Shown: in pieces, positions 1,346 to 34,934 of the stretch | Layout of the letters: the number at the start of each line of letters is the position of its first letter | Position numbering within the stretch: position 1 is the stretch's first letter | NCBI GenBank assembly: GCA_000165345.1 | Contig: CM000436.1 | Coordinates: 928,001 to 992,000 of the forward strand | Length of the DNA stretch: 64,000 nt | Reading direction: 5' to 3' | Notes under the pieces: model-generated | Told to the model about the DNA's origin: nothing | Database searches by the model: none | What the model saw: the letters and a program-made list of their open reading frames with translations, nothing else | Program-made: the position numbers and the translations under genes

Positions 1346-4300
1346 ATGAAGAAGGAAGAGGAAAACCTTCCAATTTATTCCTCACTAGAGGAATTTATAG
1401 AAATTAATGGAGGCGTTAACCTTATTAAAAAAATTCTAGTGGCCACAAGCGGACAAGCAGCAATAAAGTGTATAAGATCTATGAGGCATTGGGCATATGT
1501 TACATTTGGGAATGAAAAAGCTTTTGAATTTGTAGTAATGGCGACGCCTGAAGATATCCAAAGCAACTCAGAATCTGTGAGCGAAGCTGATTATTATGTT
1601 GATATACCGATGGGCCCAAACTATCATAACTATGCAAATATTGAAGTAATCGTTTCAATAGCAGAAGAACATGAGTGCGATGCTGTCTGGCCAGGATGGG
1701 GTCATGCCTCTGAAAACCCAGAGCTTCCAAAAGCTCTTTTAAGAGCTAGAAGAAAGATTATTTGGATTGGTCCTTCAGCAGAATCAATGGAAACTGTAGG
1801 GCAAAAAATCCAATCAAATATTATTGCTCAATCCGTACAGGTTCCGTGTGTTCCTTGGTCAGGAGATGGAATTTCTGTTAGTGTAGATAGGGATGGGCGC
1901 TTCACAGGTATTGTTTCTGATGAGCAACTTCAAGCAGCGTGCGTCAATAGCACTCAAGAATGTATTGACGTTTGTAAGCGAATTGGATTTCCTGTTATGA
2001 TCAAGGCTAGCTCAGGAGGTGGAGGGAAAGGTATCCGACTTTGCAGTTCCATGGAAGACCTAGAATCAAATTACAGACAAGTTATAAATGAAGTTAAAGG
2101 TAGCCAAGTATTTGTTATGCGAGCAGTTAATAAGTGTAGGCACCTAGAGGTTCAAGTACTAGGAGACAAATATGGTGACGTGTTCGCATTGAGCACAAGA
2201 GATTGCACAATACAGAGGCGTCACCAAAAGGTTATAGAGGAAGGGCCAGTTACAATTGTGAGTCAAGAGATTGTTAAGGAATTGGAGTTATCTGCAGAGA
2301 GGATGTGCAAAGCTGTGGGTTATTCATCTGCAGGAACTGTTGAATTTCTATATGATATTGAACGTTCATGTATAGCTTTTCTAGAAGTTAATGCCAGATT
2401 ACAAGTTGAACATGTTGTTTCTGAGGGAGTAGCTAACTGCAATATACCCGCAGCACAGTTACAAATTGCTATGGGAATTCCATTGAAGAAAATTCGTGAT
2501 ATTGAAGAATATAGAAAGCTAAGAAAGCAGGGGAATGCGCCTCCAAGGCATATTATCGCAGCAAGAATAACATCTGAACATGCTGAGAAAGGATTTACTC
2601 CAACATGTGGAGACGTGTTTGAAATTTCTTTTAGATCTTCGCAAACAGTATGGGGATACTTTTCAGTTGCTTCTCCAGGTCATATCCATCAATACTCCGA
2701 TTCTCAATTCGGACACATTTTTGCTTTTGGAATGAATAGAGAAGAAGCAAGAAAACATTTAATCATGGGTTTGAAGGGCTTAACCATCAGAGGTGAGATT
2801 AGAACAAATGTTGAAGCAGTTTGTAGAATATTAGAAAATCAAGATTTCATTACAGGCAACACATATACACAATGGCTAGAACACAGTGTCTATTTCTCTT
2901 CACCGTTAACTAAAAAAGTTACAATGCAGTATTTGAATGCAGTATTTGCAGCTGCATGTTTCACTGGGCTCAGATACTTCAAAGAAAGTGAGGATACATT
3001 TGTGAGGATGCTTGAGCAAGGACAAGCTCCAACCAGTATCAATATTCAGTATGAAATGACTCTAGTTCACAAGGGGATGAAGTTTATATGTGAGAGCCAC
3101 TTTATTGGTCCTGAACACGTCAGAATTATGTTGAATGGTAGTTCTGTTACAGCGAAGGTGCGTAATATTTATCCACCCAGTATGCAAAATGGGCGTGACT
3201 CGTGCTATTTAATATCAGGAGGTTTTGATGGTAGAAACAGGAAGGTTTTCTTTAAAAAAGATGCTGAAGATAACTTATTGGTTACATTTGATGGAACTAC
3301 TTACACATTCCTAAAAGAGCAAGACCCTCGTCAAGTTAGAGCTCCAGTTAGTGGTAAGTTAGTAAGGTGGTTAATACAAAACGGAGGTCAAGGTGAAAAG
3401 GGCCAGGCATACGTTGAAATAGAAATTATGAAAACATATATGCAGCTAACTCTTTCTCATAGTGGAGTTCTAGAGCATGCTAAACCTCAAGGCGCTTCAT
3501 TCAATGTGGGCGATATCCTAGCAATGTTAGAGCTCCCTAGTGAGTTTATCCCTCCTGCTTTGGAGCTATACCCGCTACCATTTCCAAAAATAGGAGGGGT
3601 AAAATCTCCAAAGCTTGCTCTTGAGACTTTTTGCTCTGGAGGATTTAGAGGAGGCCCGAGAATGGTAGCTTTAGCAAACTTTAGAGAAGGAAAGCAACAG
3701 CTTCTAAATGCACTTAATGGGTTTTTCCCAGCCTTTGAGGATGTTAGAAGCGCTCTTGGGATGTTCTACCATGTTTTAGACCCAATAATGCCATTTATTG
3801 AACTTCAAGAAGCTTGCGAAGTTGCCACACCGCTTATCAAAGTTACAGTTCGAAGAAAAATATCTGATTTGATAGAAGATGTATTTCAAACATTTGAGCA
3901 ATTAAGTAAAAATAGCTGGTATGAACAGTTTGATAGACAATTGAGCGCATTTATTTCTAATAATTCTTGCTTTGAATCTGATGTAATGTCAGACCAATGC
4001 TTGAATTCATTCGAAGATAATGATGATATCGAAGATGAAGGACAGCCACCAAAAGTTCTTCAAGATAAACGCCTAAGTTCTGATGGTTCTGAAATGCCAT
4101 CAATGCTGCTTTCAAACAAAGCTGATGAGCTTGACCCAAAAAATGCGAGCTTCGCACAGAATAAGAAGGAATTAGCCAAAGAAATATTTGTAAATGAGGC
4201 CGAACAAAAAAAAAGTTTTGAAAATTTTCTTGGTACTAATATATATTTGAAGAACCATTCAAAAAATATTAGATCGGCATCTGATTTAGAAATATATATA

Positions 4301-29897: not shown

Positions 29898-30854
29898 TTA
29901 ATGCAAAGGAGGCAATACAGGCTCTCTGAATGAATTTACATCAGAAGCAGTTCCATGATACTTTTTTTCAAGTTGGTTCGGGTTTATCCACTTCAGAAGC
30001 TCGGATTTATAATCTGAGGTACATAATGTTATTTTATCTCTAGTAGACTGGGGTAAAACCAAACTAATTGCTTGCCATAATCCCCAAAATATGATTGGAG
30101 CGTTGATAAACGACATCTGGGCGAGATAACCTCTGTAGTTCCTTTGGAGATTTGTTGCAATATCCTTGAGAAGTGAAATAGGCGCATTGTAAAAAGTTAC
30201 ATCTTGGAGATCCATGATAACTCTCCACTGCTCAACTCTGTTCCATGCTAGCATATTTGTTATTACAAACTCGAACCAATAATAAACTACATGAATTATA
30301 TTGTCAGGTTCTTCCCCATCTAAAAAAGCTTTAGCTCTAAAAACTATGATTGGTCTTAACAATTTGTCTCTTCCATGAATATAACAGTACCCATTCCTTA
30401 GTAGCTTCTCTAATTTATTCCTATCTTCAATCATTCTAAAGTTTTGTCTCCACCTAACGTGACGCTTAATATCATCCCATGCTTTTACGAAATCGTACTC
30501 ATTACCTTGTAAGTACCTTAATAAAAGATGATTATCACAAAAAGCGGTATTTTTTAATGAAACATGCCTAGACTTGAGATATGTATGCATTTCTCTAATC
30601 TTTCCTTCCTCAAATTCATCCAAAGGAAGATCTCCGAAAATATATCTCATCCCATTCTCTCCAAATCCATGTCTAATGGCATCTATTGGAGGATTAAAGT
30701 TTACCACTTCTAATGGTCTATATTTCGTCACTGTTAAATCTTTCTCTCTTCCATTTCTATATTTTGCCAAACGGTCTTCTTTAATAGTATGCCCATGGTG
30801 AGTCGGGCTATTAGAATGTGGGGTTTGATGCTTTGGAGATGGAGAGTTCGTCAT
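29898..30854 (-). CDS. Sec14/CRAL-TRIO lipid-transfer protein, about 319 aa
   Basis: ORF-track start 30905 is GTG. The first ATG is at 30854 (MTNSPSP). The CRAL-TRIO core (LLRYLQGNEYDFVKAWDD..YIHGRDKLLRPIIVF..WRVIMDLQDV..GYLAQMSFINAPIIFWGLWQAISLVLPQSTRDKI) is present. Confidence 0.8.
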   Translation of the reverse strand: MTNSPSPKHQTPHSNSPTHHGHTIKEDRLAKYRNGREKDLTVTKYRPLEVVNFNPPIDAIRHGFGENGMRYIFGDLPLDEFEEGKIREMHTYLKSRHVSLKNTAFCDNHLLLRYLQGNEYDFVKAWDDIKRHVRWRQNFRMIEDRNKLEKLLRNGYCYIHGRDKLLRPIIVFRAKAFLDGEEPDNIIHVVYYWFEFVITNMLAWNRVEQWRVIMDLQDVTFYNAPISLLKDIATNLQRNYRGYLAQMSFINAPIIFWGLWQAISLVLPQSTRDKITLCTSDYKSELLKWINPNQLEKKYHGTASDVNSFREPVLPPLH

Positions 30855-31102
30855 TATATATAATTTCCCTACTCTAATTACCTTTGTCTTGCTGGTTCCT
30901 GACACTTAATATCGTCTCTTTTCCACACCTTCTTTTATCTTTAATTAATTTAAATTATCACTGATTTAATTTCCATCCAGTTTGAATTTTATTTAAAGTT
31001 CAAATATAATTTATATTTTGTCTAAAAATAATTAGGCCAAAATTTGTGAGCATTTGGCGGTAAAAACATGCGACTCAAGCTGGTATGGAACTTTGGAACA
31101 TG

Positions 31103-31133
<31 letters not shown>

Positions 31134-31235
31134 CTGAATTTTAAGAGTAGATTAAATATATAAATTAAATATAAACTACTGTAAAATATAATATGAAGCT
31201 ACCTTTTATAATTATTTAAGGAATTAGGCAATAAT

Positions 31236-32988
31236 CTATGCTAGTAATAATGACTTCATTATGCAGTCGACAAATTCTTCATTATCTGCGCCTGGAAGGT
31301 AGGAGTTCGAATATAGAGATGGAGATGAAGCCATGAAATTTTCCAATTTAGGAATAGGAACATATCTTATCTTTCTTCCCTTTGAAGCTCTTCTATCTAC
31401 GTTGTTAACTGTCTTTTTCCCCTTGCTGAGTAGTGACGAGGAAACAGAGTTTAAATTAGGATCAGTGATTGACTTTGAAGAAATAATTTCCTTGAGTAAT
31501 GAAACAAATGAGTCTGAATCATCGTAAATATCCTTGCTCAGTTCATACATTAACATTGGATCTACTTTATCTCTCAAGAAATCGATTCCTATAAAGTTTA
31601 GAGAATTAGCATTAGGGCGTGACTTATTTAGCGCATGTTCTTTATTCAATAATGTTTGCTCTAACTGAACCCTTAGAGACTGGTTGAGTACTTTGAAGTT
31701 TTTTTGAACCTAAAATTTTAAAAAGTTAGTCGAAGTTTACAGGCAAGTAAAAAAGTATTACTTTATTCATTTGGATATAGTAGTGGTGTAACACCATCAA
31801 GAAACAGGAAATTCTATCGGCTGACATTACCTCTACTTGAGTAATTCGTGAAAACCACGAACAATTGTTGAGAGATTCAACAAAAAGCGTTCAGTATATC
31901 CAAAATTGCAAGGCCAAATAATTTGACAGTTATATATTAAATCTCTTTATTTCAAAACATGTTATAATTAAACTTCTTTAATTATTCATGACTTTGAACC
32001 AAATAGATAATATAAACTAATATTAATTTGGCAATTGAAAAACAAATTTGGAATATCAAACTTGAAAACAAACTTCAATACAAAAATATTGAATCTTTTG
32101 ATTCGTATTGAAATTCAGTAACACAAAAAAATCAATTTTTTAACTTACCTCAATTTGAGTATTTTTCTTCCATTCATCACAAACATCTATACACCACTCA
32201 AAAGTGTTATCTAGTACTGGATTATATTTATCCCAAAACTTCAGCTCAGCTTTAATTCTTTTATTAGAAGATTTGGAATTGAGTCGTGAATAAATTCCAA
32301 ACTTTGCTGAATCGTTCAAAATAGTTGAAGAAAGTCTTTTATTCTTACGATTAAGATGCATTTGTAATTCTTGATTCATTAATGTTAGATCAAGTATTTC
32401 TCTTCTAATTTCATCCAACTTAGTTTTAGAGTCTTCGTTTAATGACGAAATTAATCCAGTTGGAGGAAGCTGATTGCATAACTTTAAAGCATTTTGAATG
32501 AAGATACGTATTGCAAGTATATCGGACCATATTTTACGCTGATTTTTCACATTTTCACCTCTTTCTTTATCATATATCATTTTATCCATGATTTTAGTAT
32601 TATCCACAATAGAAAAATTAGCTTCCAACTCTTTATATTTATCGACCTTTCTAGAAATAGAATCAGATAGTTGAATATTATTCTTAAAATCGGAGTATTC
32701 TTCATTAATATTGTCAAATCCAGTAATATCATTAATGCTATAATCATATGCAGCCTCCTCAAATTTAGAGTTTTCATCTCTAGTAGAAATTTCTCTGTCT
32801 CTCATTTCTTTAAAATCAGATAGAGATATCTTCTCTCCAGCATATTTTTTAGGCAAATTAAAATTTGCTCTGAATCTCAATCTACCGTCATTTTTACTGA
32901 ATTCACTTATATCTGGGGTTTCTTCTTGGTCTATTTCTGAGCCGCTTTGGTTCTTTCTATCATAAAATTCATCATCATAAAAATCCAT
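31236..32988 (-). CDS. AATF/Che-1/Bfr2-like nucleolar protein, proposed 2 exons: join(32988..32149, 31709..31236)
   Basis: Exon 1 (ATG 32988, acidic N-terminus, RKIWSDILAIRIFIQNALKL region) ends ATTGAG|GTAAGT just before its in-frame stop (donor at 32148..32143). The minus-strand acceptor ttttaaaattttAG lies at 31711..31710. Exon 2 continues in phase 0 into ORF 31236..31649, which has no ATG of its own at its N-terminus. Exon 2 carries a TRAUB-like YDDSDSFVSLLKEII motif and a C-terminus RKIRYVPIPKLENFMA that resembles AATF C-termini. Confidence 0.6.
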
Positions 32989-33193
32989 TTTGTTTTAGAA
33001 CCTGAATCACTAAAAGATATTTTAAGACTGCTTATTACCTGTGTATAAACTTTCAGTAGATGTCCAAATTTTATTATTACTACCTTACAAGTTATTTTAT
33101 ACTATACGTCTGAATTTACTTTTCGACAGTAATTATTGACTTTTTTTTAAGCGGACAATTTGAAAAATTTTAGATAAAAATTTGTTACCCTGT

Positions 33194-33202
33194 AGGCGCC
33201 AA
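33194..33202. promoter_or_regulatory. AGGCGCCAA in the AATF(-)/DCC1-like(+) divergent promoter; second site TTGGCGCTAA at 33370..33379
   Basis: Both sites lie in the 500-bp intergenic region between 32988 and 33489. Confidence 0.45.
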
Positions 33203-33488
33203 CTATCTGTTAATTCAATTTAAAGAAAAACATGAAAAAGCAATTGTGAAAATTAAGGCTACATGGTTATTATGCAGCAGAAACAACATATCATAAATTT
33301 CTTTTTAACGGCTATAAAAACATTTACTTTTTTAAATCAAACTTGCATTTTCATATTAAAAAAAAGTTATTGGCGCTAAATGTGGGAAAGTAATATTTAA
33401 ATATTTGGTGTGAGGTTAAAATATAATGAACAGGTGTTTATGTTGTTTTATCTAAGCAGAGTGAATCAAACTTATAATATATCCTGAA

Positions 33489-34934
33489 ATGGAGGTAGAT
33501 TTCCATACTCTATACTCAAAAGCAGCTAGTAGTTGGTCTCTTTTACAATTGGATCCAAATTGCGAGGAAAGCCTTAGAAATGGGAAACAGTTATGGTTAA
33601 AGGGCCTGAAAAACAATAGAGAGAACTGTAATGTTCCAACAGTTATTTGTACAGAAAACGAGACCTTTTATCTTAGACGTGAGAAAAGTAGTAATGTAAC
33701 GTATTTAGCTATCGAATCTGAAAATGGAGAATTAATTGAGATGCAAAACGATGAGAACTCTCCTAACAATGAAAGCTACAATGCAAATAAACTTTCAGTA
33801 GTTGGAAATTTGAACAGCATTGTAGTTATGATTAAAATTCCTGCTATTATGAATCTTTTCGAGGATTACATAGCTAGTCATAGAAATTTAACTAATAATT
33901 CACACTCCGAAATGACTTTTAAAAAGCTATTTAGCATATCTCAGATAAGTTTGATGGAGCTATATAATTTCTTATTTGATTACAGCAGCATGATGTACTG
34001 TGATATAGAAGGAAACTGGTATTCAATTAACAACGAAATTTTGTTATTTTTGTTGAGCTCGCTTTTACAAAAAGGGATGTCAATGAATAAATCTTTCAGG
34101 TATATGACTGTTAAAGATGTAAAATACTTGCTAAGAGAATCTTTTTCAGAGTTAGAATCTCTAGGGGAATCTTTGGAAAATAGCATTAATTACAACGTTT
34201 TAAAGCATGCATTGAGTTTTGACTTAACGTTAATCCAATTGATCAAACATATCATCGTTCCTGCAGATAACAATTTAGGAAATTTGGTTTTCGATGAATT
34301 TGTCGAGGAAAACATTAAAAATCTTCTATCTTCTCCTCGGATACAGGATCATGTGTCTCTAAGAAACATTGATAGCATGAGAGTTGACTTTTCATATAAG
34401 AGAATACAGGGAATTCTTGCTACATCTATTTTAAAAAAACATCAAGTTCTGAAAGCAAGAGATTATATTGAGGAATTTCAAAACATTCTTTCAAACTATA
34501 TTCCTTTAGAACTAAGTGAACTAGAATTCGAATATAATGACACAAACGCAATATCAGATTTAGATGGCGAAAAAAATATCAAGGTAGAAACTGACTTTTA
34601 CTATGGGTTCCCTTTAATCGAAAACCATCCAGATAACACGGGGATCAGGTTCGATATAATTGCGGGTCAGGCATATTACAATCATGAGGATGATGCAATT
34701 ATTTATTTGCCCAGTTCGTCCCTTCCAATTGACCCACGTAATAGGCTCTCAATTTTGTTTCGCAAAAAGAAGCATTGGCATATTTCGGAGCTTAATGCTT
34801 ACATTTCTCCAGTTCTACAGCCGAGCATTAAACTTGAAGCGTTCTGCCTTAAAAATTGCTATGTTTGTGAACAAAATATTTTTAATAAAAATTATAGACT
34901 TTTTTACAATAAAAATCTTCCTCTCATGCATTAG
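33489..34934 (+). CDS. hypothetical protein, possible DCC1 (Ctf18-RFC subunit)-like, 481 aa
   Basis: ATG at 33489. The N-terminal block TVICTENETFYLRREKSSNVTYLAIE resembles the DSCC1 N-terminal motif (..LCSKDKTYDLKIADTSN..). Otherwise unassigned. Confidence 0.4.
   Translation: MEVDFHTLYSKAASSWSLLQLDPNCEESLRNGKQLWLKGLKNNRENCNVPTVICTENETFYLRREKSSNVTYLAIESENGELIEMQNDENSPNNESYNANKLSVVGNLNSIVVMIKIPAIMNLFEDYIASHRNLTNNSHSEMTFKKLFSISQISLMELYNFLFDYSSMMYCDIEGNWYSINNEILLFLLSSLLQKGMSMNKSFRYMTVKDVKYLLRESFSELESLGESLENSINYNVLKHALSFDLTLIQLIKHIIVPADNNLGNLVFDEFVEENIKNLLSSPRIQDHVSLRNIDSMRVDFSYKRIQGILATSILKKHQVLKARDYIEEFQNILSNYIPLELSELEFEYNDTNAISDLDGEKNIKVETDFYYGFPLIENHPDNTGIRFDIIAGQAYYNHEDDAIIYLPSSSLPIDPRNRLSILFRKKKHWHISELNAYISPVLQPSIKLEAFCLKNCYVCEQNIFNKNYRLFYNKNLPLMH

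Follow-up and report, generated by a model that had tools for sequence, protein, structure and literature searches.

The AATF/Bfr2 gene of Cryptosporidium parvum (cgd8_3810) lies on the minus strand of the 64,000-nucleotide (nt) stretch of C. parvum chromosome 8 DNA analysed here (33% G+C; hereafter the window) and is split by an intron of 439 nt, which raises the question of why so long an intron is found at this site. Li et al. 2022 (PMC9465071, Table 1) give 1370 C. parvum introns that together make up 1.29% of approximately 9.2 Mb; the mean intron is thus about 87 nt long, and the one in AATF is about five times the genome mean. A first-pass annotation of the window had suggested that the intron might harbour a small nucleolar RNA (snoRNA) or, alternatively, that a closer, non-obvious acceptor is used. 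The results presented below argue for the first of these proposals. The intron probably hosts an H/ACA snoRNA of approximately 280 nt, encoded on the same strand as AATF, which would guide a universally conserved pseudouridine in helix 69 (H69) of the large-subunit (LSU) ribosomal RNA (rRNA) and would be a functional counterpart of U19/SNORA74 and snR191. Hosting this RNA is most likely the reason why the intron is long throughout the genus.

The gene model on which this interpretation builds was assembled from the sequence, the list of open reading frames (ORFs), Pfam searches and protein matches. Exon 1 (32149..32988, minus strand, 280 codons) begins with the ATG at 32988 and ends with the codons ACT CAA ATT GAG at 32149, after which come the donor GTAAGT (32148..32143) and an in-frame TAA (32142..32140), as the first-pass annotation had it when placing the stop of the ORF within the donor region. 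The downstream ORF (31236..31649) was likewise correctly described as having no ATG at its start, its entry in the ORF list beginning at a TTG. The frame of exon 2 (31236..31709, minus strand, 157 codons and a TAG stop at 31236..31238) is open upstream to 31709, directly 3' of the TAG at 31712..31710 that contains the acceptor AG, and because this TAG closes the frame, an in-frame acceptor farther upstream is impossible. Searched separately, exon 1 matched the Pfam domain AATF-Che1 (PF13339; E = 1.8e-13, 51.7 bits against a gathering cut-off of 24.7, residues 140-274) and exon 2 matched TRAUB (PF08164; E = 3.5e-17, 63.1 bits against a cut-off of 20.3), with the whole TRAUB profile covered. Exon 2 also contains the sequences IYDDSDSF and KGRKIRYVPIPKLENFMA, the first of which had been pointed out as a TRAUB-like motif and the second as an AATF-like C-terminus. 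When joined, the two exons encode a protein of 437 aa that is identical over its full length (100%) to the deposited C. parvum protein cgd8_3810 / CPHLJ_8g3801, and the public gene call of 1753 bp spans exactly 31236..32988. The gene model is therefore correct and already annotated, down to the phase-0 intron of 439 bp with its donor and acceptor, and is not itself new.

The identity of the gene as AATF/Bfr2, proposed in the first-pass annotation, is further backed by orthologues found across Cryptosporidium, Vitrella, red algae and plants. In an alignment with the AATF/Bfr2 proteins of Vitrella, a red alga, a plant and a marine protist (alignment A2), the spliced junction WKKNTQIE/VQKNFKVLNQS (slash, exon boundary) rebuilds the motif WKK.TQ[IL].V...FK.L[DN]QS, which is contiguous in the homologues from other phyla, and no residues are gained or lost. 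By its domains and alignment, this C. parvum gene, with its single phase-0 intron, is orthologous to AATF/Bfr2. Yeast Bfr2 and human AATF are nucleolar proteins of the small-subunit (SSU) processome that act in 18S rRNA maturation and ribosome biogenesis, and the Cryptosporidium protein is by orthology a predicted ribosome-biogenesis factor. It shares with metazoan AATF (Che-1, Traube) and yeast Bfr2 the pair of AATF-Che1 and TRAUB domains and the C-terminal motif VDRRASKGRKIRY...KL.NFMA, but is short (437 aa) and has a divergent N-terminal acidic region. A literature search for cgd8_3810 returned no mention of the gene.

The intron (31710..32148, minus strand) is bounded by GTAAGT (32143..32148) and TTTTAG, and carries the branch-point-like motif ACTAAC (31725..31730) 13 nt before the AG, followed by TTTTAAAATTTTAG, the tract and acceptor together occupying 31710..31723. 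It was compared among 12 Cryptosporidium species, namely C. parvum, C. meleagridis, chipmunk genotype I, C. ubiquitum, C. canis, C. felis, C. ryanae, C. bovis, C. serpentis, C. muris and two further assemblies from sequencing runs. In all 12 a single phase-0 intron interrupts the same codon position, with a GTAAGT donor and a YAG acceptor, and its length ranges from 365 to 579 nt. The suggestion of a closer acceptor can thus be set aside, given that the C. parvum intron has several stop codons in each of the three frames, that the TAG at 31712..31710 closes the frame of exon 2 and that the junction is the same in the 12 species. Alignment of the introns revealed little similarity near the splice sites, while a block of approximately 133 nt is kept even between C. 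parvum and the gastric species, the AATF proteins of which (C. muris) are approximately 41% identical to that of C. parvum. Conservation starts at UCCAAA and has a sharp edge 3 nt past an ACA triplet.

The conserved sequence folds into a structure that is maintained by compensatory changes. With RNAalifold, the core shared by the 12 species formed two small hairpins and a longer 3' hairpin, in which 95.3% of the paired cells of the alignment were standard pairs, compared to 39-57% when the partners were slid by 1-3 columns; 13 pairs were changed on both sides, compared to 3-8 when slid, and none of 500 shuffled alignments reached either value. The full-length consensus fold, computed for eight species, comprised 74 pairs, of which 28 showed compensatory changes, and the 280-nt C. 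parvum sequence folded on its own with a z-score of -4.99. From the consensus fold, the z-score and the limits of conservation, we infer that the RNA extends over approximately 31773..32052 on the minus strand.

The long 5' hairpin (31899..32052) is closed by UCCAAA.../...UUUGGA in a stem of 10-13 bp, which in C. parvum consists of UCCAAAUUUGU (32042..32052) and GCAAUUUUGGA (31899..31909) and in C. canis and C. ryanae has 11-13 bp with exchanges between G-C and A-U. Farther in are an asymmetric bulge (YWAAUU), an inner stem of GCCAAAUUA (32024..32032) and UUAUUUGGC (31913..31921), and an apical hairpin (31965..31984). An H-box-like hinge element, AUACUG (31892..31897), was recognised by eye in two alignments (A1 and A3), and is followed by small hairpin A (UUGUUGA-AUCUC-UCAACAA, 31865..31883), with pairs that covary from A-U to G-C, and small hairpin B (UUCGUG-GUUUU-CACGAA, 31845..31861), where four of five pairs are changed on both sides, 100% of the cells are paired and the loop G-U-N-N-U is conserved. 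The 3' hairpin (31779..31837) has a lower stem of AGUAGAGGU (31829..31837) and ACCACUACU (31779..31787), in which five of eight pairs are compensatory and 99% of the cells are paired, GUAG.GGU/ACC.CUAC being replaced by CAGA.AAG/CUU.UCUG in C. muris. Its upper stem and loop (31793..31821) are separated from the lower stem by an internal loop formed of AAUGUCA (31822..31828) and GUUAC (31788..31792). The box that adjoins the lower stem, together with 3 nt beyond it, occupies 31773..31778, which would be the 3' end of the RNA.

This layout, in which a hairpin, a hinge, two additional small hairpins, a further hairpin and an ACA box follow one another and both terminal hairpins are backed by covariation, points to a box H/ACA snoRNA. 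The hinge element lies 1 nt past the 5' hairpin and reads ANANNR in the 12 species, its sixth position being A, as in the canonical ANANNA, in six of them and G in the other six. The box next to the lower stem of the 3' hairpin is ACA in nine of the 12 species, and conservation is gone 3 nt later. The base of the upper stem in the 3' hairpin lies 14-15 nt upstream of the ACA/AUA box, which matches the defining geometry of H/ACA guides, the pockets of which sit 14-15 nt from the boxes (PMC5499648). Of the earlier suggestion that the intron harbours a snoRNA, the H/ACA alternative was thus borne out in silico, but the C/D alternative was not, there being no conserved C/D boxes.

Candidates of other classes were rejected. 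Neither a C box (RUGAUGA) nor a D box (CUGA) is conserved within the block; a CUGA past the hinge occurs in some species only, a UGAUGG is not conserved, and the terminal stem GGATATA/TATATCC of C. parvum is absent from the other species. No defining motif of RNase MRP/P, of a small nuclear RNA Sm site, of a telomerase template (CCUAAA) or of snR30/U17 (m1/m2) was present or conserved. At gathering thresholds, Rfam returned no match in the whole 64,000-nt window, and permissive scans of 2.5 kb gave chance-level matches only, outside the intron, with C/D matches at E ≥ 0.8.

If the internal loop of the 3' hairpin is read as a guide pocket, its target can be predicted. The 5' strand of the pocket is (A)AUGUCA and the 3' strand GUUAC, and their GUCA and GUUA bases are invariant in the 12 species, C. 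serpentis having GUUAU instead of GUUAC. By the standard H/ACA rule, the substrate of such a pocket is 5'-GUAAC-UN-UGAC-3' with the UN unpaired, which is the loop of LSU rRNA helix 69, within GAGUAACUAUGACUCUCUUAAGGUAGCC. Exact copies of this 28-mer were found in at least 120 metagenome DNA stretches, and in three long contigs it was located by Rfam within eukaryotic LSU rRNA. A complete eukaryotic ribosomal DNA (rDNA) unit from a metagenome, with 5.3 kb of rRNA, was used as proxy, and in it the H69 loop was the best all-Watson-Crick site for the pocket, with 5 + 4 bp and the UA unpaired; among 300 composition-matched shuffled pockets, 12 found an equally good site anywhere in the 5.3 kb. If the assignment is right, the H69 loop of C. 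parvum is expected to read GUAACUAUGAC, and the selected uridine is predicted to be the equivalent of E. coli 1915, yeast 25S 2258 and human 28S 3741. In human rRNA, U19 guides Psi3741 and Psi3743, and in yeast snR191 guides Psi2258 and Psi2260, with one stem-loop for each of the neighbouring uridines (PMC7075261). The H69 site is among the most conserved H/ACA-guided sites in eukaryotes (PMC7075261, PMC5499648, PMC3542256).

For the 5' hairpin, in contrast to the 3' hairpin, no canonical guide pocket was found at the canonical distance, and scans for an rRNA target gave weak, non-conserved or wrongly oriented matches only; the hairpin is taken to be structural. It contains a stretch, CAAAGUCAUG (31987..31996; AGUCAUAG in C. 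canis), that is complementary to H69 CUAUGACU, which overlaps the site targeted by the 3' hairpin. The conserved AGUCAU(AG) of this stretch pairs with CUAUGACU in C. parvum, C. ubiquitum and C. canis, and is located in a stem and not in pocket geometry. The complementarity could be an accessory pairing or a coincidence.

Comparison with known guides of this site supports the predicted target. When the 296-nt region alone was searched against Rfam, SNORA74 (U19, RF00090) was the sole snoRNA family returned. The alignment places the first hairpin of U19 on the C. parvum 3' hairpin, with the pocket and its flanks identical to the consensus (UGUCAGCC ... GGUGUUACACC), and the SNORA74 pocket consensus is that of C. 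parvum (UGUCA and GUUAC). This alignment supports a common target but does not establish homology. Because the score lies far below the family threshold of 71 bits, the RNA is filed as a functional counterpart of U19/snR191 rather than as a demonstrated homologue. The two RNAs are alike in the pocket and the flanking stem bases, in the loop uridine selected (as predicted here), in being intron-encoded and in being unusually long for H/ACA RNAs, at approximately 200 nt for U19 and 280 nt in C. parvum. They differ in that the H69 guide of U19 is the 5' hairpin (positions 1-60 of 201), whereas in C. parvum it would be the 3' hairpin, beside the ACA box, and in that the C. parvum RNA has a degenerate H box, two extra small hairpins and no second pocket that could be found.

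The size of yeast snR191, 274 nt, is similar to that of the C. parvum RNA. Both have the same predicted target, the equivalent of Psi2258 (PMC7075261), and for both the host is an intron of a gene that acts in ribosome biogenesis, in a genome poor in introns, snR191 being encoded in an intron of NOG2 that is retained in intron-poor fungi (PMC8476143). The hosts are nonetheless distinct, NOG2 acting in LSU maturation and Bfr2/AATF in the SSU processome, and both hairpins of snR191 are guides, whereas a pocket was found only in the 3' hairpin of the C. parvum RNA. No sequence-level match between snR191 and the C. parvum RNA was obtained. U19/snR191 is kept even in microsporidia, where counterparts have been assigned by target (PMC5499648), and a counterpart is listed for Entamoeba and Plasmodium falciparum (PMC3542256).

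A possible route from the host transcript to the modified rRNA can be outlined on this basis. Splicing of the pre-mRNA at GAG/GTAAGT ... TTTTAG/GTT would release the intron, which would then be debranched and trimmed by exonucleases until trimming halts where the H/ACA proteins Cbf5, Nop10, Nhp2 and Gar1, by binding both terminal hairpins and the ANA-type boxes, protect the ends, leaving an RNA that would accumulate. The pocket of the 3' hairpin would open onto the H69 loop of the LSU pre-rRNA, with GUUAC pairing with 5'-GUAAC and UGUCA with UGAC(A)-3', and the UA dinucleotide would be left without a partner where the upper stem begins, at a distance of 14-15 nt from the ACA box, so that its U may be converted to pseudouridine.

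Several observations weigh against an H/ACA guide for H69. The H box of C. parvum is degenerate, reading AUACUG instead of the canonical ANANNA, the ACA box is replaced by AUA in C. parvum, C. meleagridis and C. serpentis, and the two extra hairpins intervene between the hinge and the 3' hairpin. The pairing between guide and target amounts to 9 bp only (10 in C. muris), and the H69 sequence itself was taken from other eukaryotes and not from C. parvum LSU rRNA. A guide for the neighbouring H69 uridine (1917 / 2260 / 3743) was not found, as neither the 5' hairpin nor the intron nor the window contains a pocket of the AGAGU...UAGUUAC type. The match to SNORA74 scored 11.4 bits (E = 1) and covered model positions 1-60 only, and the same Rfam search did not recover the family with the RNA of C. 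canis or C. muris. The RNA of C. muris gave only a weak match to snoR77, listed as an H/ACA family; this match is uninterpretable, the literature using that name for a C/D family.

Most of these points would equally suit a genuine H/ACA-type RNA that does not guide H69 and instead is an orphan, acts in processing like snR30/U17 or guides a different RNA. The short complementarity, the C. parvum boxes, the 5' hairpin that lacks a pocket, the internal hairpins and the E-value of the SNORA74 match are all compatible with it, and the proxy rDNA also offers a 12-bp site with four G-U pairs, which is located in a variable region of the LSU. The pocket bases are nevertheless invariant across the genus and the same as those of the SNORA74 consensus, their geometry is canonical, with the UN unpaired at 14-15 nt from the ACA box, and the site that they select ranks among the most conserved of the H/ACA-guided sites in eukaryotes. 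The snR30/U17 motifs m1 (AUAUUCCUA) and m2 (AAACCAU) are moreover absent. An H/ACA RNA with another function is therefore considered improbable.

A cis-acting element of the pre-mRNA, regulating splicing or expression or bridging the splice sites without release of a stable RNA, is another explanation for a conserved intronic block in an intron-poor genome. In close relatives, the 96 nt at the start of the intron fold as well. Such an element would not be expected to have H/ACA architecture, with the box exactly at the edge of conservation and a pocket that fits the target of a known snoRNA. In addition, the block lies at a variable distance, 49 to 171 nt, from the 3' splice site, which argues against a role tied to splice-site geometry, and we regard this explanation as quite unlikely.

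It is very unlikely that the block is an independent non-coding RNA (ncRNA) gene on the opposite (+) strand. The helices are largely strand-symmetric, and antisense and nested ncRNAs are reported for C. parvum (PMC9465071), but 41 of the 322 paired cells, including the invariant pair that closes the upper stem, are G-U in the sense orientation and would be A-C mismatches on the plus strand, so that the RNA is assigned to the strand of AATF. Only the minus strand has the ACA box, the pocket geometry and the alignment to SNORA74. Least probable of all is a small extra coding exon within the intron, as in a deposited C. felis model of 460 aa that includes IYCPFEPTWLRCLGKTNPPVEFPTGNPRFSWISQVE, translated from the snoRNA region, given the stop codons that interrupt each frame of the C. 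parvum intron, the single intron in eight other annotated species, the variable columns of the block, which are spread 27/27/27 over the codon positions and thus mark it as non-coding, and the other-phylum homologues that have no insertion at the junction.

The C. felis annotation itself (P0006; 3302-3725 of the C. felis locus) contains an insertion of 36 residues (IYCPFEPTW...SWISQVE) that stems from a mini-exon placed across the conserved intronic RNA. It looks wrong, because a single intron of 424 nt (GAG/GTAAGT ... TTTTTAG/GTT) yields the product expected from the other species.

Outside the conserved block, the intron and its surroundings showed some further features. Upstream of the predicted snoRNA, the first approximately 96 nt of the intron (32053..32142) contain a hairpin formed by ACUUCAAUAC ... 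GUAUUGAAGUU, which is found in C. parvum, C. meleagridis, the chipmunk genotype, C. ubiquitum and one further species, and not in C. canis, C. felis and the distant species. The hairpin is an intron structure specific to this lineage or else an extension of the precursor. In C. ryanae (3782-3952 of its locus) and C. bovis (3786-3955), the intron runs approximately 170 nt beyond the ACA box, compared to 49-93 nt elsewhere, and these two extensions have stretches in common, e.g. TTTAAAGA.T.AAAGCCA.AAAC. The order of the genes around AATF is identical in the window (29898..34934) and at 11 loci from other assemblies (L001-L011) as far as the contigs reach, with a Dcc1-like gene on the plus strand, AATF, a CRAL-TRIO/Sec14-like gene, an ORF of 124-147 aa and a DnaJ gene. 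The ORF between the CRAL-TRIO and DnaJ genes had no Pfam match.

Between the AATF stop and the CRAL-TRIO gene, the minus strand carries a conserved motif, GAGTCGCATGTTTTTACCGCCAAATGCTCAC (31037..31076), that is common to the intestinal species; in C. ryanae and C. bovis the aligned position is occupied by TTTGGCGCGC. GCATG and E2F-like (GGCGG/GGCGCG) promoter motifs have been described for Cryptosporidium, and GAGTCGCATGTTTTTACCGCCAAATGCTCAC resembles them; it is probably a promoter element of the CRAL-TRIO gene downstream. Weak Rfam matches at 31037..31076 (plasmodium_snoR17 and ohsC) were discarded as low-complexity artefacts. Approximately 100 nt downstream of the AATF stop codon, T(11) is followed by A(20) on the minus strand (31102..31135), and this homopolymer pair is of variable length or absent in other species.

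An RNA of the H/ACA class is expected in any eukaryote, and intronic structured RNAs of this kind have been catalogued in the same organism by Li et al. 2022, who reported four H/ACA snoRNAs and 23 intronic ncRNAs in C. parvum and proposed that such RNAs preserve introns (PMC9465071). The tool used there ignores targets, and the text assigns no rRNA target. The RNA described here may already be among the entries of that catalogue, and is new or at least newly interpreted; its predicted target, a pseudouridine in the H69 loop at the subunit interface, would be the first assigned to a Cryptosporidium H/ACA RNA in the literature covered here. A more far-reaching and tentative possibility, which we do not favour over other histories, is that the Cryptosporidium RNA is a rearranged relative of U19/snR191, in which the hairpin that guides H69 has shifted to the 3' side, the pocket of the other hairpin has been lost, the H and ACA boxes have drifted (ANANNR and AUA) and only one of the two H69 loop pseudouridines, both universally conserved, is guided by the RNA, with the RNA being the selective reason for the survival of an intron of approximately 400 nt in a compact, intron-poor genus. 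If this were true, the output of an LSU modification guide would be coupled to the expression of an SSU-processome factor. A snoRNA cargo would explain why an intron about five times the average length has been kept at one site throughout Cryptosporidium, and the AATF intron may thus provide a concrete case of snoRNA cargo preserving introns in intron-poor genomes, as for snR191 and NOG2 in fungi.

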